Positions 4,304 through 13,162 of a stretch of 64,000 nt of DNA are shown piece by piece; the first letter of the stretch is position 1; each line of letters begins with the position of its first letter. The stretch lies in IMG/VR virus record IMGVR_UViG_3300045988_111260, one strand, 5' to 3'. A program made the position numbers and the translations under genes. Under the pieces are notes generated by a model. The model searched no databases. It saw nothing but the letters and a program-made list of their open reading frames with translations, and had not been told where the DNA came from. Origin of the DNA: a virus.

Positions 4304-6556
4304 TTAATTTTTTAAGCTTAACCAGGTGCGCCTCTTATTATGATTTGTTACGATACATCTCTTAAACGCTTCTGGCTCTGCAAGGAGCGCAAATCTTTTC
4401 TTAGCTCGTGTTAACATCGTATATAGCATACAGTTATCAAGCAATTTGTAATGTGTGTTGTCAATGATACCAATTACAGTTTGAGCAGCCGATCCTTGAA
4501 GCTTATGCGTTGTTAATGCATATGCCAATTGAAGTTGTCCTAACTGAGCAAAAGAATATTCGATCATCTTCTTATCCATGTCTGGATTCATCATGGCGTG
4601 AACAACTTTCTTATCATAATCAATGCCAGTAATGTATCCAATATCTCCATTAAATGTGTTTCTTTCATAGTCATTACTGGTTTGAAGCACTTTATCTCCC
4701 ACATAAAACTTCTTTGTTTTGCCATATGTAACAAACCTTGCATTGGATTTATTTTTATACAATTCTTTCTGAATTGCTACATTAAGTTCTTCTGTAGAGT
4801 TTATGCAACCTGACTTACGAGGAGAGATTACAACCACATTATCCATACCGTCTTGTTTAACACACGTCATGAACTGCTTTACAACCAAATTAAAAATATT
4901 CTCACGATTATTTCTGAAAATGTAAAACATATCATGTAGCTCTCCATGAACTTGTTTAGCACTAAAATCCTCAATTGGAGAAATTGCTCTACGCACTTTT
5001 CTAGCATCACTAAGAATACCAGACTTTTCTGCTTGTCTCATTGGCTTCGTTAATTGCACTGAATCTAACTCATCCATTTTGAGTAGATCAGAGAAAATGT
5101 TACCATATCCAATTGGTGGTAACTGCATATGATCTCCGCTAATAATAATCTTTGTACCTGGACGAATTGCCAAAAGTAATTGATAGAACAACCCTGCATT
5201 AACCATACTTGCTTCGTCTAAAAGAACTACATCAATTGGTAATGGATTGTTAGCATCGTGCATAAACGAGTCTACGCCTTGTGCTTCAAGTAATCGATGA
5301 ATAGTTCTCGCTTCTAATCCTGTTGCTTCTTGGATTCTCTGTGCTGCTTTCGCAGATAATGCACATGCAGCAATGCTGTAATTTCTTTTCTTATAACATC
5401 TGATGATCGGCTTTAATAAAGTAGTTTTACCAGTTCCAGCTTCACCACTGATCAAGACAACATTTGTTTGTAATGCAGTATAGATACCTTTGTTTTGTTC
5501 TTCACTAAAAGTAAATCCTTCTTCTTTTTCAACTTCAGCAATAACTTGTCCAATTTCGTTTACAGTGATTATCTCTTTCTTCTTGGTAGAATTAGTATCT
5601 CTGCGTTCTTGCAACAATGCCATTATATTCATTTCTGTGTCATGGTACTTTTTCAAACCAATTAGTTCGCCACTAACATAGATGTCTGGAGGAAAATCAT
5701 TTTCAACATAATCGTCAAATATATGCAGACACTCTCCAACTGTTGTACTAACTTCTGATCGCAATGTGGCAATCGCCATATATGTATGTCCGTCACTTTC
5801 GCCAAGATTCGTTAAATAATACGTCATAAAATAATCAAGTCGATACTTAGAATCTCTCAACTCTGGACGGATCTTTAAAGCAATATCATCAACTTTCTTA
5901 AATCCAAGACCTCTGATCTTAGTTAAAATGTAAGGATTTGTGTTGATTTTATACTTTAACTTTTCTGGATCTGGCTCAGCTTCTACCAATTTCTTAATCA
6001 TATTAAAAGTAATGCCATGAGGCTGTAGCATAACTACAACCTCGGAAATCACATAATTATTAATGATCTTCTCTCTGAGCTTCGCCCATGTCTTATTGCC
6101 AAGTCCTTTAATCATAGATGTATCAATCGTCTTGCATTTGCCTGCCATAACATCTTCAATGATATTTGGATATTCAGCAAGTAAACCTTCAGCAATTGAT
6201 TCTTTCGCTTGTGTTTTTAAGAACATTAGCTGATCAGTCTGTGTTTTTGGAACATCTGCAACAACCGAAATCGGTTTATATTGATATTCATGATATTTTT
6301 GAGAATAAATACATGTCGCTTTTACATTATACTTTGTCCCAATATATAACTGTTGAACTTCTCCAACAAGTTTACTTGCAACATATTCTTTATCTCCTGA
6401 GTCATCAAATTTATTATCATTGTATGGACTGAATTGTGGTATCTGGTCTTTTGTACAAAACGCATAGATACCAAACATTGATTCTTCATTATAAAATATC
6501 TGATATGTAGGAATCATTTCAAACTCGCATACCTTTCCGCATGTCTGACTCTCCAT
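4304..6556 (-). CDS. RecD-like SF1 DNA helicase with about 350-aa N-terminal region of unknown function
   Basis: Walker A GEAGTGKTT, Walker B VVLLDEASMV, IISGDHMQLPPIG, C-terminal LTTHKLQGSAAQTV. Confidence 0.75.
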   Translation of the reverse strand: MESQTCGKVCEFEMIPTYQIFYNEESMFGIYAFCTKDQIPQFSPYNDNKFDDSGDKEYVASKLVGEVQQLYIGTKYNVKATCIYSQKYHEYQYKPISVVADVPKTQTDQLMFLKTQAKESIAEGLLAEYPNIIEDVMAGKCKTIDTSMIKGLGNKTWAKLREKIINNYVISEVVVMLQPHGITFNMIKKLVEAEPDPEKLKYKINTNPYILTKIRGLGFKKVDDIALKIRPELRDSKYRLDYFMTYYLTNLGESDGHTYMAIATLRSEVSTTVGECLHIFDDYVENDFPPDIYVSGELIGLKKYHDTEMNIMALLQERRDTNSTKKKEIITVNEIGQVIAEVEKEEGFTFSEEQNKGIYTALQTNVVLISGEAGTGKTTLLKPIIRCYKKRNYSIAACALSAKAAQRIQEATGLEARTIHRLLEAQGVDSFMHDANNPLPIDVVLLDEASMVNAGLFYQLLLAIRPGTKIIISGDHMQLPPIGYGNIFSDLLKMDELDSVQLTKPMRQAEKSGILSDARKVRRAISPIEDFSAKQVHGELHDMFYIFRNNRENIFNLVVKQFMTCVKQDGMDNVVVISPRKSGCINSTEELNVAIQKELYKNKSNARFVTYGKTKKFYVGDKVLQTSNDYERNTFNGDIGYITGIDYDKKVVHAMMNPDMDKKMIEYSFAQLGQLQLAYALTTHKLQGSAAQTVIGIIDNTHYKLLDNCMLYTMLTRAKKRFALLAEPEAFKRCIVTNHNKRRTWLSLKN

Positions 6557-6571
6557 TGTTTAGGCAGCACC

Positions 6572-7054
6572 TCATTTCCCTTTTAAATAATTTTTAAAGT
6601 AATACTCAAAATATAATCTAATAAACAGCCCAGAATATTTATTATCTGGCATGAAGAATATCGGCACATTGTATTTAAACCAAAAGCTGTGCAATGATCC
6701 AATGAATGATTTCTTGTTATACTGCGTGTTGTAATTGCCATCTGCAATATCTGAGTAATTGGCGTTTTCAAGCAGAATAACTTTTGTCTCTGGTGCAAGA
6801 CTTAACTCTTTTTCAAATCTGGCACGATCTTTTGATAAATTGCCACTGATTTCTTCAAGACTTCCTTTTCGCTCAACACATACTTTGCTGTCAAAATACA
6901 TATCTCTCTGAATACCAAGCTTCTCATTTGCAGGAATCATGAAGCTGTAGTCCCCATAATTCAATGCTTTCTTTTTATGATTTACGCTTTTTCTATCGAA
7001 GTAACCTATGATATGATCAGCCTTTTGCTCCCTTGTGTCGACAAGGATTGTCAT
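6572..7054 (-). CDS. ERCC4-type (XPF/Mus81/Hef-like) nuclease domain protein
   Basis: ILVDTREQ ... YGDYSF ... VCVERKGSLEEISGNL, resembling the ERCC4 GDY...ERKxxxD signature. Confidence 0.5.
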   Translation of the reverse strand: MTILVDTREQKADHIIGYFDRKSVNHKKKALNYGDYSFMIPANEKLGIQRDMYFDSKVCVERKGSLEEISGNLSKDRARFEKELSLAPETKVILLENANYSDIADGNYNTQYNKKSFIGSLHSFWFKYNVPIFFMPDNKYSGLFIRLYFEYYFKNYLKGK

Positions 7055-7104
7055 CGAGCTGACGAGTTCTTTGATTTCCTTGTCGGTATATTTGTAAAAT
7101 TGAA

Positions 7105-9132
7105 TTATACTAATTCCTCCTTTGCGTCATTTTTAATAGTGAAATTCTTAAGCCAAAACTCAAATTTATCTGGTACATCTTTGTAGATTTTCTTTCCTGT
7201 TTTTGTATTGATCTCCCCAGTTGGTTCTTTTTTATGTTTCTTCTCAACTGATTTCAGATATAGAATATCTCCTTCATCGAATGGGTTCTTCTTATATTGG
7301 TTTGTCCACATTTTTACTTTCTGTGTTTTTCCAGAGTAAATTTCATATAACTGAATGTTAACGATGGATTTTTTAACATCAAGATCTGAAACATAATATA
7401 ATCGTTTATTAACTTTTACGTTAGCATAGCTTACAATTCCGAGAACATTTCTCTGATTGTCTAATTTTTCTTTCAAAGACAATTCTCTGTATGGAATATT
7501 TTTTATAGATTCAATAAGTAATTGTTCTGAATCTAATTGATTATAAAGTGTTTTTGTCTCATGACCATACTTCAAAAGTAAATCAGAAGAAATGTGATAT
7601 TCTATCGCCTTTTCTTTGGACAATTGCTTTTTCCCATTTAATAATTCATAATATTTAACTGTTTCTAATAAGGTATTCGCATCTCCGAACTCTACAAAAT
7701 AATTAATTTTAATTAATTTGTCTATCACTGTTTTATTGAGATGATTCTGCTTTAATACATTGATTACTTCTATGAATGAGCTGTATTTAGCCTGTCCTAA
7801 ATCATATAGTGAATTGGCGACACCTTCTCCAAATCCTTTAATGCTTGATAAATTGGGATATATAATTTTATGTTCTTCATCAATCGTGACTTTTCTATTG
7901 TCTGCTCCAAACCGATAATCTCCCAATTTATATCCCCAAAATTTAATGGCTTCTTTTACTAGAGCATCAATTTTATCTTTCTTATTTTTTTCTTGGTAAT
8001 GATTAATTGCTACTTCATAGAACATTTTCGTATAATGAGCTTTAAACCATGCCTGATAGGCAGAATCCTCAGCCATCGACCAAGCATGCGGAGAGTTGAA
8101 GGCGTACGAAGCTGATGAGTCTATAACTTCCCATATATTATTGAAATTATTAAGTTCTCCAATTTCAATTTGCCAACCATCTTTTAATCTTTCTTTCAGT
8201 TCTTTTAACTTTTCAGGATGAGCTTTATATTTTTTTTTCGAGATATTTTTAATAACTCCATACGTTTCGCCCATCTTCAATTGCAGGAAAGATAATACCT
8301 TCATAATTGACTCTTGATAAATCATAAAATGTGCTGTATCTTGTAACAACTCATCAATTTTCTTTTCGCCTGTTGAATATGGTTCACGATTTAAAAAAGT
8401 ATTTAATAAAGATGCAAATCCTGGTCTAATTGCAGCAATGAAACTACTTAATTCTGCTAAATTTTGTGGCTTATATTTCTTTGCTCTATTTGTTGTCGCT
8501 TCTTTTTCACATTGGTTAACACAACAAGTAATTCCTTTTGCATAAATATCCCATGTTTTATGATCTCCTTCTATCATCTCTCTCAGTTCTTCAGATGTAG
8601 GAACCTCCATTCCTATACTGTGAAAAAATTTATATGTAAGATAAACACTATCTACAATAAGAAAATCTTCTTTTACATATCCAAATTCATCAAGATAGCC
8701 ACCTTCAATGGCGGCACAAATTGTTCTTTTCCCAGTCGTTTCTGAAACAGCACTAATTAATCCTACTTCTCTACGAATATCTCCGTCGAATATAAAATGC
8801 CCACAAGCATGTACTTTTAGATTGATAGTAATTCCTTGATATTCGTTGCTTTGTTTAAATAAATCAACGTATTCTTCTGGAATATAATCTTCAACATGAA
8901 TAAAATCTTTATCTTCTTCATCAGCATATTTTAATGCTTTATTATAGTCATCAAGATATTTTGAAATTCTGTTTGCATCTTCTGGACTAACATCGTTAGC
9001 TCCAGCATATAATTGCCATGCTGCTTTCTCTTTTAACTTTTCTATAGCCATTAACGGATAACATCCATGCTCTCCAAGAAGTTTTTTTGCAGCTTTCACA
9101 AATGGTTCCTGAGTAGCTACATTTAGGTCAAT
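7105..9132 (-). CDS. dnaE: DNA polymerase III alpha (DnaE-type), exon 2; the frame is open upstream of the annotated GTG and begins IDLNVATQEPFVKAAKK
   Basis: IAAIRPGFASL and MIYQESIMKV match the DnaE palm/fingers RPGPM and YQEQ motifs; IDLN completes the catalytic PDIDLN when joined to exon 1. Confidence 0.7.
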   Translation of the reverse strand: MDLNVATQEPFVKAAKKLLGEHGCYPLMAIEKLKEKAAWQLYAGANDVSPEDANRISKYLDDYNKALKYADEEDKDFIHVEDYIPEEYVDLFKQSNEYQGITINLKVHACGHFIFDGDIRREVGLISAVSETTGKRTICAAIEGGYLDEFGYVKEDFLIVDSVYLTYKFFHSIGMEVPTSEELREMIEGDHKTWDIYAKGITCCVNQCEKEATTNRAKKYKPQNLAELSSFIAAIRPGFASLLNTFLNREPYSTGEKKIDELLQDTAHFMIYQESIMKVLSFLQLKMGETYGVIKNISKKKYKAHPEKLKELKERLKDGWQIEIGELNNFNNIWEVIDSSASYAFNSPHAWSMAEDSAYQAWFKAHYTKMFYEVAINHYQEKNKKDKIDALVKEAIKFWGYKLGDYRFGADNRKVTIDEEHKIIYPNLSSIKGFGEGVANSLYDLGQAKYSSFIEVINVLKQNHLNKTVIDKLIKINYFVEFGDANTLLETVKYYELLNGKKQLSKEKAIEYHISSDLLLKYGHETKTLYNQLDSEQLLIESIKNIPYRELSLKEKLDNQRNVLGIVSYANVKVNKRLYYVSDLDVKKSIVNIQLYEIYSGKTQKVKMWTNQYKKNPFDEGDILYLKSVEKKHKKEPTGEINTKTGKKIYKDVPDKFEFWLKNFTIKNDAKEELV

Positions 9133-10274
9133 CCTTGATACCCTCGGTTTCCCGATATTTTAATAGGGGAGTAGACTATACCATAATCGTCGATATTATC
9201 TCGGATTCCCATTGGTAGTCGTTGCGAGCTTCCCATATTGTATATTTAAACAACTTAGGGCTATCTCTCAGGATTATCCAATCCTTGCCGCTGTTACCAT
9301 ATCATTGCAGTTAACAATGCCACATTTTGATTTCTCTAATGCTTGGTGGACAAGGTTTTAGGACTTCCCCTGATATTCTGGGTTTTCTATATATATCACT
9401 ACATATAGCGACTATTATAACAGTACATATTCTACGTTATTTACATTGAACTTTTCTTGTTTAAGAAATTGTTTTAGTTCTCGTTGAGTGCAATTTAGTA
9501 GTGGATACAATTTTTTCATCATATCTTTCAACAAATAAAATCTTTTATTAGTCATATCTGCATAGATTTTTCGTCCGACATTACATTCGCACAAATACTC
9601 GAATTGATTGTTTAATAAATATTCATACATTTCTTTTGTATATAAAACAAAATGATAACCATAAGCTAAATTTTGTTTATTTAATAAGCACCTTGATATT
9701 GATGATGTATTTTTAATATGTAATTCTTTTGCAGCATCCTTTTGTGTCTTATATATTTTTAGAGTTTCAACACATATTACAGACTTGGCATTTGGGTTAT
9801 TTTCATTTAAATTTTTCCCAATCTTTTTTTGAGATAAATTTCTTTTCATTTCTTCAGTCCATTTATGCCCATAATTTGGGTTATTCGTCCCCATAACCAT
9901 TCTTCGCATTTTTTCTCTATATTCATCTGTAGGATTTGGGATATAACATCCAGATCCACCACCATTCATATTGTAGCCATTTTTATATGTGTTTAATTTT
10001 TTAATCCAACTCTTCTCTTTCTCATCAAGATCTTCTCTTTTACACTCTTCTAAAATATAATGTTTAAAACTTTCTTCACCATATTTATTAAAACTACGTT
10101 GCAAATAACAATTTGCATGATCGTTTCTTCTTAAACTATTTAGATGATGTTTCCATCGATCATTTATATCTACACTTTGTCCAACATATTTTTTATGATT
10201 TACAATATTTTCAATACAGTAAATACCTGTAATAAAAATTCCTCCTTTACTGGTTTATATGCACTATTGTTTTA
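9133..10274 (-). mobile_element. Group I intron (about 1.14 kb) interrupting dnaE, carrying a GIY-YIG homing endonuclease ORF
   Basis: Exon 1 ends ...AGQMPD then TAA; exon 2 frame opens at IDLN; intron 3' part contains a P7-like GACUA...(P8)...GGUAUAGUC and ends in G. Confidence 0.65.
9415..10233 (-). CDS. GIY-YIG homing endonuclease (I-TevI-like), intron-encoded; probable non-AUG (ATT) start 7 nt after GGAGG
   Basis: ITGIYCIENIVNHKKYVGQSVDINDRWKHH...NCYLQRSFNKYGEESF lies in frame upstream of the track's TTG start; C-terminal NUMOD-like region. Confidence 0.7.
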   Translation of the reverse strand: MTGIYCIENIVNHKKYVGQSVDINDRWKHHLNSLRRNDHANCYLQRSFNKYGEESFKHYILEECKREDLDEKEKSWIKKLNTYKNGYNMNGGGSGCYIPNPTDEYREKMRRMVMGTNNPNYGHKWTEEMKRNLSQKKIGKNLNENNPNAKSVICVETLKIYKTQKDAAKELHIKNTSSISRCLLNKQNLAYGYHFVLYTKEMYEYLLNNQFEYLCECNVGRKIYADMTNKRFYLLKDMMKKLYPLLNCTQRELKQFLKQEKFNVNNVEYVLL

Positions 10275-11546
10275 ATCGGGCATCTGACCTGCTAAAACAC
10301 GGTCTTTTGTTAAAAAGCGTTCTGGATAAATAGGAATATCTGCATTGAATCTATCTACCGTTGTTAATCCTAGCAACTTATTTGTAATGAATGATGCAGC
10401 GCTACCTCTTGACGTAGTAGTTAATATTCCACCTTCGCAATTTACTGCATCATCTACAATTGCTTTACTTGTTAAAAAGTAATCTACAACTCCTGAATCC
10501 ATGACTTGTTTTGCTTCATACCTAATTCCATCTGCTTTTTCTTTTGATTTTTCTTTTTCTTTAGCATAGGCTTTGTTTAATATTTTCTTATAAATAGCAC
10601 ATTTACCTTCATATGTTTTATCTTTATGAACGCTTGGAATTTTAAATTTTCTGTCAAAAACAATTTCTTCGCATTCTGACATGAACACATTTGTGTTCAT
10701 AATAGCAGTTAAGACTTCTTCCTCAGAAAGAACTCCTTGCTCTTGAAATCGCTCTATAACCGTTGTTGTGTCTGGATAATCCATATACCATCCAAATTCT
10801 TCTGGATATTCAATATGCTTGTACTTTAAAATCTGATCCCTTTTTACTGCCGTCTTATCATCAATGTAATGACTATCAAGCCCACAAATGATCTGAATAT
10901 TGTGTTCTTTTGCAAGTTTTAAGATTTTTCTGTTAAGTCTTTTTTGTGGATCAGTATTATGAGCCTGCACTTCTAAAAAGAAATTATCGCCAAAATAGTC
11001 ATGTATTTTTAACCAAATGTCCTCTGCATCTTTATAATGCCAACCAGATAAGCAAGCCGATGTAACAATTACATTCTCTTTTGGAATATTAAAAAGTAAT
11101 TCTAAGTCAATTCTTGGTTTGTAATAATATCCATCAATATTTGCCATAGAAAGGGCGAAGTTAATATCTTCTCTCCCTTCAGCATTTTTCGCAAGTATCA
11201 TCATATGACAGTTTGCTTTGTCTTTTTCTTTTCTATCTTTCACCCAGTAGGCTTCAGCAGAATGAATATATTTCAAATGCTCCTTTTCAGCCACTTTATA
11301 TACTTCAAACTGGTTTCCTTGTGACCCATGCTCCCCTGAATAAAGACATTTTGCACCAAATTCATGAATACGTTTTGCATAATTTTCAATTGATTCTGCA
11401 CAATCTGGAGTTGATGTATTACTAAAATCTTTATGACAATGGTAGTTTTCAAGATATAGATTTCTTCCATAATCTTCAACAGAATATGGAAATTTAAATT
11501 TTAATGTTGGGATAATTTTTGCAATTAAATCTTCATACATAATCAT
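10275..11546 (-). CDS. dnaE: DNA polymerase III alpha (DnaE-type), exon 1 (PHP domain through catalytic-site Asp)
   Basis: PHP YLENYHCHKDFS; RGSAASFITNKLLGLTTVD...ERFLTKDRV...MPD matches DnaE GRGSAAGSLVAY...ERFLNPER...MPD(IDxxF). Confidence 0.75.
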
Positions 11547-13162
11547 CCCACCTCTTCAAGTGAATCACACACTGCTTTCAGCACAAACTTTCTGCCAAAG
11601 AACCCACAATCAAGAGTAGTTACAGCACAAAACTCATCATTCATCATAGAATGGTCTTCCATATCCTCAAACGATCCATCATAGTTCCATTTAATGATCC
11701 ACAATTTATCATTGTTACATGGTTTCAGGACAAGATGTTTATAATTGCTCATCTGACCAATGTCATAGTCGTCAATCTCTTCAATATAAACTCTTACAGG
11801 TTTAAATCCTTGTCCAGAAATACGATCAATTTTCTTAATCATGTCAACCATTTTTCTTGTGATGTCTGAAATATCAAGCATAATATCGACATCAACTGTT
11901 GTATCTTCTGGCTTATCTGGAAGAGTTTCTTCTATATAAGAGGTGAACTCAGCAAAGTTCTTTCTAGGAATTTCAATACCACTGGCAAGTTCATGTCCAT
12001 TTGCTTCAGCCAACTGACTGTTATTACACATCTGTCGGAAGTCTTTTACACCAACTGCTCGCATAGATCCTGCATATGTATCTTCATTTTTCTTTAGCAC
12101 AAGAATCGGCTTCTGGTATTTTTCAAGCAATTTGTTTCCAATTAACCCAGAAATACCATAATCAGTGTCGATAAAAGTTGTGATCATCTTTTTATCACTC
12201 TGAGCTTCACACTGTTCCGCAATCATTGGCATCAGCTGTGCGACCTCTGCATTTTGGTCTTCTTTGCATTGCTTTAACTGTTTAATATATCCTCGTAACT
12301 TTTTATTGTCATCTTCAAGGAAAGCATTTAGAGCAATTTCATTCTGATCCATTCTGTTTGCAGCATTAACCAACGGTGCAATACTAAAAGCAACTGCTGT
12401 GCTGTTGAATTCAAATCCACCAATAATCTTCTTAATCGCAGGATTTCTAATTTCTTTCAAAGCTTCGGATACAATGTAACGATTCTCCATTACTCTCATA
12501 TCCATCATATCTGCAATCAGCCCAACGCCTGCTAGATCGACCAAATCATCTGCATAATCTGTACCATTCTGCTCATCAATATACTTGCAAAACTTCCAAA
12601 CAACACCTGCGCCAGATAGCTGTGGATTTTCATATTCTCTCTGAGAAGAAACTAATGTGCAATAGTTGTCATAAGGAACATCTGGATCGATGGCATGGTG
12701 GTCTAACACAATCACATCAACTCCTGTTTCTTTTAAATCCTTATACTGAGTCTCGTCTTTATCTAAACTATCAACGACAATCAGTAAATCATACCCATAA
12801 AACTTAGCAATGTCCTGATTTACTAATCCATGCTGTTTGCCTCGGTTAATGTATACATCTACTGGATTTTCTGTCATGTTTTTTAAATATCGTGTCATAA
12901 TGGCACCAGATGTGATGCCGTCAGTATCTGTGTCAAAATGTACTGCAATACGTTTATCTTTGTATACTGCATCTACCAGAAGCTTATATGCTTTATCAAT
13001 ATTTTTTAAGTCATCAAGAGGAAGTAAATCATCTTCCGTAGGATTTAGAAAATGCTCTGGATCGTCAATACCACGCTCCTGCATGATAATTTCAAATACC
13101 TCATCTTCAAAAAGTCCTCTGCAATCGTTCAAAATGTTATATTTCTTCTTCGACGTCTTCAT
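11543..13162 (-). CDS. RecJ-like DHH/DHHA1 single-strand DNA exonuclease
   Basis: VHFDTDTDGITSG, VIVLDHHAID, C-terminal DHHA1-like ...EANGHELASG. Confidence 0.7.
   Translation of the reverse strand: MKTSKKKYNILNDCRGLFEDEVFEIIMQERGIDDPEHFLNPTEDDLLPLDDLKNIDKAYKLLVDAVYKDKRIAVHFDTDTDGITSGAIMTRYLKNMTENPVDVYINRGKQHGLVNQDIAKFYGYDLLIVVDSLDKDETQYKDLKETGVDVIVLDHHAIDPDVPYDNYCTLVSSQREYENPQLSGAGVVWKFCKYIDEQNGTDYADDLVDLAGVGLIADMMDMRVMENRYIVSEALKEIRNPAIKKIIGGFEFNSTAVAFSIAPLVNAANRMDQNEIALNAFLEDDNKKLRGYIKQLKQCKEDQNAEVAQLMPMIAEQCEAQSDKKMITTFIDTDYGISGLIGNKLLEKYQKPILVLKKNEDTYAGSMRAVGVKDFRQMCNNSQLAEANGHELASGIEIPRKNFAEFTSYIEETLPDKPEDTTVDVDIMLDISDITRKMVDMIKKIDRISGQGFKPVRVYIEEIDDYDIGQMSNYKHLVLKPCNNDKLWIIKWNYDGSFEDMEDHSMMNDEFCAVTTLDCGFFGRKFVLKAVCDSLEEVG

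Follow-up and report, generated by a model that had tools for sequence, protein, structure and literature searches.

Introns and Inteins of Phage Replication Genes

In phage T4 the td gene, a gene of DNA metabolism, is interrupted by an intron whose open reading frame (ORF), encoding the endonuclease I-TevI, is located in the P6 region, starts with AUG, and is regulated by a hidden Shine-Dalgarno sequence. Considered here is a related arrangement found in IMG/VR virus record IMGVR_UViG_3300045988_111260, a stretch of 64,000 nucleotides (nt) which in its entirety is described as the window. Between positions 7105 and 11546 of the window, and on its minus strand, as is the case for all of the window's features as described below, a gene for a PolIII-alpha-type DNA polymerase (dnaE) is interrupted by what very probably is a mobile group I intron carrying a homing endonuclease, with the phage itself seemingly a temperate phage of gut Clostridia. 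As with td, the interrupted gene is a phage gene of DNA metabolism, the intron presents an early in-frame stop, and the catalytic domain encoded is homologous (structures 1mk0 and 1ln0; TIGR01453). Unlike with td, the ORF in the window fills the loop of helix P1 (L1) and starts with AUU, and both host gene and target sequence differ.

The polymerases of phages SPO1, SP82, and Bastille are of PolA type, and the endonucleases associated with their introns are nicking HNH enzymes. Those polymerase introns, with I-HmuI and I-BasI, are the subject of work by Landthaler and Shub as cited in PMC7685451 and PMC2504315. They too are mobile group I introns which are positioned at conserved motifs of the replicative polymerase genes of Firmicute phages, whereas in the window a polymerase of the C family is found with a GIY-YIG enzyme. 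Inteins of DnaE, among them the split one of cyanobacteria, similarly are selfish, have homing endonucleases, and occupy conserved sites of this same enzyme (PMC4760082). Inteins involve protein splicing rather than RNA splicing, however, and the insert in the window has no Hint domain.

A real precedent for dnaE as an intron host gene is provided by Bacillus phage G. The DNA polymerase gene of this phage contains self-splicing introns, and the phage is placed in a group that is defined by a PolIII-type enzyme (PMC7824862), and one sentence in that publication is the sole description of a dnaE group I intron that was found in the literature. In record NC_023719 the phage G dnaE consists of gp329, gp330, and gp331. 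The first contains a PHP domain, positions 2-66 of the DNA_pol3_alpha profile, and an intein, and beyond ...NPTRGKLP it continues into sequence that is without homology; gp330 is an endonuclease of GIY-YIG/NUMOD3 type; and the frame of gp331 opens ...K DIDIDFC, matching profile positions 117-253. The intein of gp329 is found some 50 residues ahead of that protein's intron. As in the window, then, a PolIII-alpha gene is the host, its catalytic motif is what is interrupted, and a GIY-YIG endonuclease with NUMOD3 is involved. The sequence preceding gp331, GGTGATATAGTCTATTCCCCTAATAAATATCAGGAAACTGAGGGTGTAAAAAG, furthermore corresponds to the 3' domain of the window's intron, i.e., the 3' strand of P7, the GAAA loop of P9, and a GAGGGU tail, with P9 in phage G showing a compensatory change (UCAG/CUGA), and the two introns clearly are of the same clade.

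The phage G and window introns differ in two respects. The apparent phage G site, LP^DIDIDF (with the caret indicating the point of interruption), is one codon upstream of the MPD^IDLN of the window, the former as read from frames alone, without an intron-less reference. The phage G ORF also runs directly into J6/7 and P7, so is found inside of the ribozyme, probably in the P6 loop, rather than in L1. No match to RF00028, the Rfam group I intron model, was returned at E <= 0.01 for the phage G intron region. An earlier reading of the window, one made from its letters alone and here termed the sequence-only reading, had viewed a DnaE-type host gene as a less common target. Unusual it is, though with phage G there exists a precedent.

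A Polymerase Gene Interrupted Within Its Active Site

Exon 1 of dnaE (10275..11546; 424 codons) encodes the PHP domain and the first part of the PolIII-alpha palm. Its translation ends ...VLAGQMPD, with an RNA that ends ...CAG AUG CCC GAU, its final base thus being U, and TAA follows directly 3' and in frame. Exon 2 (7105..9132; 675 codons plus stop) encodes the remainder of the palm together with the fingers and an HhH domain, beginning AUU GAC CUA AAU (IDLN), with the frame, IDLNVATQEPF..., remaining open from 9132 to the stop at 7105. With Pfam, exon 1 matches PHP as well as positions 11-103 of the DNA_pol3_alpha profile, and exon 2 matches positions 106-259 of that profile, the finger domain, and HHH_6, coordinates which indicate that the two pieces abut within one domain. 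The conceptually spliced DnaE is 1099 amino acids (aa) in length and its sole stop is terminal. That the two ORFs together would make one full-length DnaE of about 1100 aa, that exon 1 is closed by TAA, and that the downstream frame opens IDLNVATQEPF such that joining restores MPD-IDLN were all proposed in the sequence-only reading, and all are borne out.

The alignment of spliced product with DnaE around PDIDLN, which that reading had suggested as a check, is continuous across the junction with Thermus aquaticus DnaE (3e0d), with MPDIDLN found opposite MPDIDTD. The PDID motif of PolIII-alpha is here taken to supply two of three catalytic aspartates, and the region of the third is found in the spliced product as well (KEDFL versus KMDFL in the same alignment). 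The interruption, that is, sits between the codon for the first catalytic Asp and the Ile codon which comes next, MPD^IDLN. Among the matches listed there are over 100 uninterrupted homologues, 1075-1109 aa in length, which are 79-98% identical to the spliced product and cover 97-100% of it; one intron-less homologue is named in its source record as a Coprococcus protein.

Boundaries of the Insertion

The closest homologue of the spliced DnaE among the matches listed is P0001 (98% identity), which is encoded by a 129.7-kb phage contig (L003). The neighbors of dnaE on that contig are of the same kinds as those in the window, namely DnaB, DHH/RecJ-like, ERCC4, a RecD2-like helicase, and ligase. 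As determined using blastn, the two sequences align as two blocks, the first consisting of window positions 13000..10275 and L003 positions 4541..7266 (98.6% identity) and the second of window positions 9132..6000 and L003 positions 7267..10399 (97.3% identity). Positions 9133..10274 of the window, to which the group I intron corresponds, are a precise 1142-nt insertion, absent from this near-identical contig, between what in L003 are adjacent bases of an intact gene. Nor can that boundary slide, since exon 1 has U as its final base and the insertion has G. The window and L003 differ, within 100 nt of the junction, at exon position -4 alone, with CCC in the former and CCA in the latter. The intervening element, earlier put at 1.14 kb, thus has boundaries which are exact as compared with an uninterrupted allele of 97-99% identity.

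The Ribozyme

The insertion holds, at 9133..9414, a complete group I fold, P2 through P9 with a P3/P7 pseudoknot, and this fold is supported by covariation. The ribozyme core (9133..9408) was delimited using RF00028, covariation, and the minimum-free-energy fold. Upon scanning 9120..9430 alone, RF00028 is matched over its full length (model positions 1-253) at 9151..9428, with 50.1 bits relative to a gathering score of 50 and with E = 4.6e-12. The covariation alignment consists of 11 distinct cores, their sources having been gathered by megablast, pattern, and protein look-ups, and the structure, P2-P9, consists of 68 pairs in 15 helices. Over the 11 cores 97.3% of cells are paired, and both-side changes are seen in 33 of the 68 pairs. 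Those pairing values were reached in 0 of 500 shuffles, and when instead 3' partners were slid by 1-3 columns, then pairing came to 26-43%, with 4-6 pairs showing both-side changes. The minimum-free-energy fold of 9133..9417 recovers all of the nested helices (z = -2.15). Both the RF00028 score and this strong covariation agree with the original identification as a group I intron, and the P7/P8-like GACUA core which also had been pointed out is present, as GACUA...UAUAGUC, and represents P7.

Proceeding from 5' to 3', P2 (9408-9400 / 9395-9387) is capped by a GUGA loop and is followed by P3 (9382-9379 / 9211-9208), P4 (9373-9368 / 9273-9268), and P5 (9363-9361 / 9279-9277). The last bears a three-way extension which consists of P5a (9355-9349 / 9289-9283), P5b (9342-9338 / 9326-9322), and P5c (9319-9315 / 9307-9303). 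P6 (9267-9265 / 9228-9226) is extended by P6a (9260-9258 / 9234-9232) and P6b (9254-9250 / 9241-9237). P7 (9220-9216 / 9178-9174) crosses P3, giving the pseudoknot, and P8 is made up of two segments (9206-9204 / 9188-9186 and 9200-9198 / 9194-9192). A P9.0-like pairing (9168-9166 / 9143-9141) encloses a short P9 (9155-9152 / 9147-9144), which has a GAAA loop. As read from the sequence, CCUAAG (9259-9254) and UAUGG (9237-9233) flank P6b, spanning 9233..9259. These presumably represent the classical 11-nt GAAA-tetraloop receptor motif, the putative partner of which is the GAAA loop L9. A search of the window for further copies of the intron, by blastn with a word size of 7 and by looking for the motif (A/G)(A/T)TA(T/G)AGTC, came up with nothing convincing.

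As an observation on the model itself, RF00028 as employed with default Rfam filters overlooks this entire clade, i.e., the window's intron along with those of loci L001, L010, L011, L014-L020, and L097, with matching seen only given scans of approximately 300 nt. Among those missed is the copy in phage phiCD211 (L001), which already is annotated as Intron_gpI.

Splice Sites and P1

Positions 10273..10278, CGAU^UA, comprise the 5' splice site along with the 5' strand of P1, with cleavage predicted between 10275 and 10274, and the intron's first three bases are the in-frame stop, UAA (10274..10272). The exon's CGAU and the intron's UA pair with an internal guide sequence, UAGUCG (9414..9409), placing a U.G wobble at the point of cleavage. 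The guide serves as the 3' strand of P1 and comes right after the stop codon (9417..9415) of the endonuclease ORF. This pairing of exon end with guide places the endonuclease ORF so that it fills the P1 loop, with the whole of the ribozyme found 3' of that ORF. The intron's last base, the omega G, is G9133, with the 3' splice site between 9133 and 9132; the sequence-only reading had named G as last base, and it is that, and also invariant in all 11 relatives.

The sequence AGUCG is found right after the endonuclease stop codon in 6 of 6 dnaE intron lineages. In relatives without an ORF the guide is separated from the 5' splice site by 8-35 nt and varies in step with the exon. In a viral contig designated L011, for example, the exon is GGAU^UA and the guide UAGUCC, and in phiCD211 the exon is GGU^U and the guide AGCC; joining of exons at the sites so inferred results, in both cases, in open frames. 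At exon position -4, the 74 intron-less alleles of viral contigs display A (42), T (26), C (4), or G (2). A C at that position, which gives the Pro codon CCC and which pairs with G of the guide sequence, thus is found in 4 of 74 intron-less alleles versus 6 of 6 independent intron lineages (Fisher p = 7e-7, which ignores relatedness).

The Endonuclease

As predicted from its sequence, the insertion contains an intact gene for a GIY-YIG endonuclease of I-TevI type. This ORF (9415..10233; 272 codons plus UAA) is in a different frame from the dnaE exons, lies in the P1 loop, and has a probable AUU start at 10233..10231, behind the Shine-Dalgarno sequence AAAGGAGG (10241..10248), the position of which is kept in L097, L014, L015, and L020. 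The protein is predicted to consist of a GIY-YIG catalytic domain, then a linker (NUMOD3), and then, at the C-terminus, a region for DNA binding. Pfam matches are to GIY-YIG (PF01541, E 2e-11) and NUMOD3 (E 1.3e-6), I-TevI catalytic domain structures 1mk0 and 1ln0 are matched with E 2e-17, and TIGR01453, 'group I intron endonuclease', is matched with 107.6 bits relative to a cut-off of 56. Matches over the C-terminal 138 aa are sub-threshold, to NUMOD1 and to I-HmuI NUMOD-like sequence (E 0.07-0.1). The protein aligns end to end with its 12 homologues, among which residues Y16, R26, H30, H39, E73, and N88 (corresponding to Y17, R27, H31, H40, E75, and N90 of I-TevI) are invariant.

The only start-like codon that is found at a proper distance from the Shine-Dalgarno sequence is the ATT at 10233..10231, which is 7 nt after AAAGGAGG and two codons before GIY. 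The program-made ORF begins instead at an internal TTG, resulting in a 229-aa product from which the GIY motif is lost, and the same is true of database cluster P0121. The combination of Shine-Dalgarno sequence and ATT recurs in L014 and L097, with ATC or ATA found in L020 and L096 and ATG in L018. In L097 the frame opens only at ATT, which therefore must be the start in that locus. From this one may infer near-cognate AUU initiation, which would keep expression low. The sequence-only reading thus was correct in pointing to a GIY-YIG ORF in another frame with its own ribosome-binding site, as domains, frame, and Shine-Dalgarno sequence all hold up, with the qualification that the 'start' is a non-canonical ATT. 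A scan of 9000..10500 for signs of a separate transcription unit gave none, with 9 promoter-like sites versus 8.1 expected and no terminator. A CNNNG of I-TevI style (CCGTG) at -28..-24 of the intron-less allele, presumably one base off of the I-TevI spacing, was given no weight since the chance rate is approximately 1 per 16 positions.

Distribution and Hosts

Endonuclease homologues of 51-63% identity are all found between the halves of a split dnaE, ...GQMPD / IDLN or IDYN. Among viral contigs 80 dnaE loci were retained, of which 3 (L094, L096, and L097) carry the intron. Among GTDB genomes one contig, of 340 kb and from Eubacterium segne BX4 (L108), carries it as well, and this copy probably is a prophage; the whole of its 5.9-kb region, intron included, aligns to the window as one block with 75.7% identity. 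The scan of genome contigs employed the pattern GGNCARATGCCCGATTAR, which proved too loose, giving 88 stretches of which 80 were fetched as loci, and in only one of those 80 (L108) was a ribozyme found downstream of a match of that type. The cultured-phage collection contained no close relative of the dnaE, with identities of 41% or less except for a single faecal contig (70%), and for the endonuclease it contained nothing above 35% identity. Judging from these sequences, the element is an old one within its phage group, occurs sporadically, and is carried by temperate phages whose hosts are gut Clostridia. In L014 (3841..6828) the same intron and endonuclease are accompanied by an intein (Hint_2, Intein_splicing, and LAGLIDADG_3) in exon 2 of dnaE.

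Weighing Alternative Explanations

A number of points weigh against viewing this insertion as a mobile, self-splicing intron. The RF00028 match is borderline, that is, barely at the gathering score and as seen given a small search space only, for which reason the fold was tested independently by covariation, and there P7 (GACUA/UAGUC) and several other pairs are invariant, hence uninformative. RF00028 was not reported at the gathering score in a Rfam search of the whole window, which gave a tRNA-like match only, nor at E <= 10 in 9050..10350, and at the gathering score there was none in nine related loci. As the sequence scanned alone scores 50.1 bits, these negatives, and that for the phage G region, are attributed to speed filters. 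Indeed, a scan of 9133..10274 with RF00028, as the sequence-only reading had recommended, gives a false negative with default filters, and the match comes with the scanning of 9120..9430 alone. P10 is weak, amounting at most to AAU/AUU interrupted by a single-base gap, and is not kept among relatives. The linkage of the CCC codon to the intron could represent hitch-hiking via co-conversion from a donor that the carriers share, as opposed to selection for P1, though both fit a homing intron. The endonuclease frame has no ATG, GTG, or TTG from its upstream stop as far as the GIY motif, and an endonuclease lacking a canonical start could be poorly expressed or silent. Lastly, splicing, guanosine dependence, and endonuclease cleavage all are inferred from sequence.

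From that lack of AUG, GUG, or UUG it might be argued that the intron splices but that its endonuclease gene is silent or decaying, with the element immobile and inherited only vertically. The shortening of the ORF to 229 aa by gene callers is in keeping with such an argument, as too is the Eubacterium segne copy, since a single unbroken 75.7% block of intron plus exons is what is expected from long co-residence. The ORF, though, is full length, aligns from end to end with its homologues, and keeps all of its catalytic columns, and its strong Shine-Dalgarno sequence is 7 nt from the ATT. The recurrence of that arrangement in diverged lineages, together with the L097 frame opening at its ATT, speaks for an AUU start that is under selection and against decay. 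Distribution of the intron among close relatives furthermore is patchy. Silence of the endonuclease is therefore considered to be unlikely, though it is the most substantial of the alternatives discussed here.

It is very improbable, by comparison, that the ribozyme is a non-splicing relic, with the polymerase assembled from two polypeptides or the gene simply dead. Split replication genes are known, e.g., fragmented ribonucleotide reductase (PMC3045599) and fractured genes (PMC2677866), and ahead of the GTG at 9099 there is an AGGA that is plausibly spaced. The product started at that GTG nevertheless would be without IDLNVATQEPF, and thus without the second catalytic Asp, there is no exon 2 start at IDLN, and the same AGGA..GTG is found inside of uninterrupted alleles, so is plain coding sequence. 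Homologues which are naturally split at this point without an intron, as the sequence-only reading had raised as evidence to the contrary, also fail to appear, with intron-less homologues instead being single polypeptides of about 1100 aa. Contrary to a relic, compensatory changes have kept the ribozyme helices in lineages between which endonuclease identity is only about 50%, and contrary to a dead gene, both exons are 97-99% identical to an intact allele and free of frameshifts or stops. Fracture of the gene by a free-standing endonuclease, absent RNA splicing, was rejected given the presence of a ribozyme and an exon 2 without a start at IDLN. Least probable of all, to the point of hardly meriting consideration, is that the interruption is an intein or split intein. 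PolIII-alpha is a frequent intein host, with 116 listed (PMC4760082), and the relatives L014 and phage G do have inteins elsewhere in dnaE. Here the frame of exon 1 is closed at once by TAA, a Hint domain is lacking from the insert, the junction shows neither Hint nor intein residues (which bears as well on assembly from two polypeptides), the endonuclease occupies a different frame and has a Shine-Dalgarno sequence to itself, and the exon ends are exactly contiguous in the intron-less allele. It is by stop codon, frame shift, and lack of a Hint domain that this explanation is excluded.

A Proposed Mechanism

Group I splicing chemistry is established knowledge, and what follows is an application of that chemistry to the anatomy of a mobile, self-splicing intron as described above. 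The dnaE gene would be transcribed as a single pre-mRNA. Ribosomes translating exon 1 would halt at UAA, the first three bases of the intron, and so would not enter the ribozyme. CGAU plus UA would pair with UAGUCG, found approximately 860 nt downstream, to form P1 with its U.G wobble at the cleavage site. Free guanosine, as held in P7, would then attack after U10275, followed by attack of the released exon after G9133, thereby giving a joined ...AUG CCC GAU AUU GAC... and one polymerase of 1099 aa. The predicted spliced junction is ...AUGCCCGAU joined to AUUGACCUA, which may be presented also as ...CAGAUGCCCGAU-AUUGACCUAAAU. That an essential gene would so be restored, exactly and in frame, lends indirect support to self-splicing with exon joining.

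The endonuclease would be translated, at low levels, from the AUU at 10233, 7 nt past AAAGGAGG. As its stop codon abuts the guide sequence, ribosomes translating it should block P1, such that endonuclease translation and P1 formation would be mutually exclusive on any one RNA. Within a cell also harboring an intron-less relative, the endonuclease would cut that relative's allele near to the insertion site, with repair then copying the intron along with a little of the flanking exon, i.e., homing. Such homing, with flanking exon copied, would explain both a patchy distribution and the linked CCC codon. The patchy spread among near-identical phages, in combination with use of the same site by all carriers, is indirect support for homing.

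A broader reading, offered tentatively and with the balance of judgment somewhat against it, is that this is one intron clade which is specialized on DNA encoding the P-D-x-D of PolIII-alpha, with the address kept across dnaE genes that barely can be aligned and, in the window's clade, with translation of an AUU-started endonuclease that is coupled to, and mutually exclusive with, splicing. The members upon which this possible specialization is based are the window's clade, the ORF-less L011 copy at LD^VDFD, and the phage G intron one codon away. No account was found in the literature of P-D-x-D site specialization nor of such a coupling of translation with splicing.

Other Relatives of the Ribozyme

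The tape-measure intron of phiCD211, as annotated Intron_gpI, has a core that is 76% identical to that of the window, has the same helices, and is the source of many of the compensatory changes. It differs in being ORF-less, in being 275 nt in length (by inferred splice sites), in having a P1 loop of only 8 nt, in its location within a tail gene, and in its guide and exon, AGCC and GGU. In phiCD211 (L001 4691..4996) a 'minor tail protein' coding sequence ends approximately 300 nt before the inferred tape-measure 5' splice site, and in a related C. difficile prophage (L008 6052..6194) a second, partial copy of the core is found approximately 600 nt upstream. The tail gene thus may have two tandem introns.

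The intron in yonO, an RNA polymerase gene of SPbeta-like phages such as vB_BsuS-Goe11, is 89% identical to the window's intron over its 3' 54 nt, with L010 similar. It too interrupts an essential gene for a nucleic-acid enzyme, but differs in upstream core and in host gene, and Goe11 carries another ORF. Downstream of yonN in Bacillus phage Goe11 (L002 6041..6106), Rfam reports a DUF3800-VIII RNA (52.5 bits relative to a gathering score of 40.2).

In L011 (IMGVR_UViG_3300035499_000343), a very divergent phage dnaE at approximately 5160..7257 on the minus strand seemingly has several interruptions. With regard to the ORF-less intron relative at LD^VDFD, the frame is open for just 37 aa upstream and 164 aa downstream of the junction. 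A NUMOD3 ORF is found upstream, and a gap of approximately 370 nt separates the palm piece from the finger/HhH piece. In this same contig (1349..2626, minus strand) the anaerobic ribonucleotide reductase NrdD is called as two pieces (profile positions 1-100 and 115-270) that are approximately 30 nt apart.

Other Observations on the Window

The RecD2-like helicase is a single 750-aa ORF in the window (4304..6556). In L003 (9843..12096) it is called as two overlapping genes, of 280 and 481 aa, probably as due to a frameshift or assembly error there. Also in the window, at 34575..34716, there is a Rfam tRNA match (44.9 bits) whose acceptor, D, and T arms are normal. Its anticodon stem, GGCAA/UUGCC, is capped by approximately 78 nt of AT-rich insert in place of a 7-nt loop. 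ARAGORN reported no tRNA in the window. This could be an interrupted or disabled tRNA gene.

Implications

The element described here is a known kind of selfish element in a less usual host gene and, as such, will not surprise the specialist, nor does it change current understanding of group I introns. Worth recording nonetheless are certain of its details, namely the placement of its ORF in L1, the probable start at AUU, the false negative with Rfam, and an apparent preference of the clade for PolIII-alpha active-site codons. As a practical matter, gene callers break the polymerase into 'PHP domain' and 'DNA polymerase' fragments and shorten the endonuclease. Because the default filters used with RF00028 miss this clade, large genomes of gut and Firmicute phages probably are under-annotated for introns. 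An I-TevI-like enzyme possessing a new and highly conserved target also could serve as a modular nuclease domain. For study of homing and of co-conversion, the naturally occurring intron-plus and intron-minus alleles represent a ready set. With regard to phage biology more generally, the active site of the C-family replicative polymerase joins the targets of phage homing introns, beside the inteins of this same enzyme.

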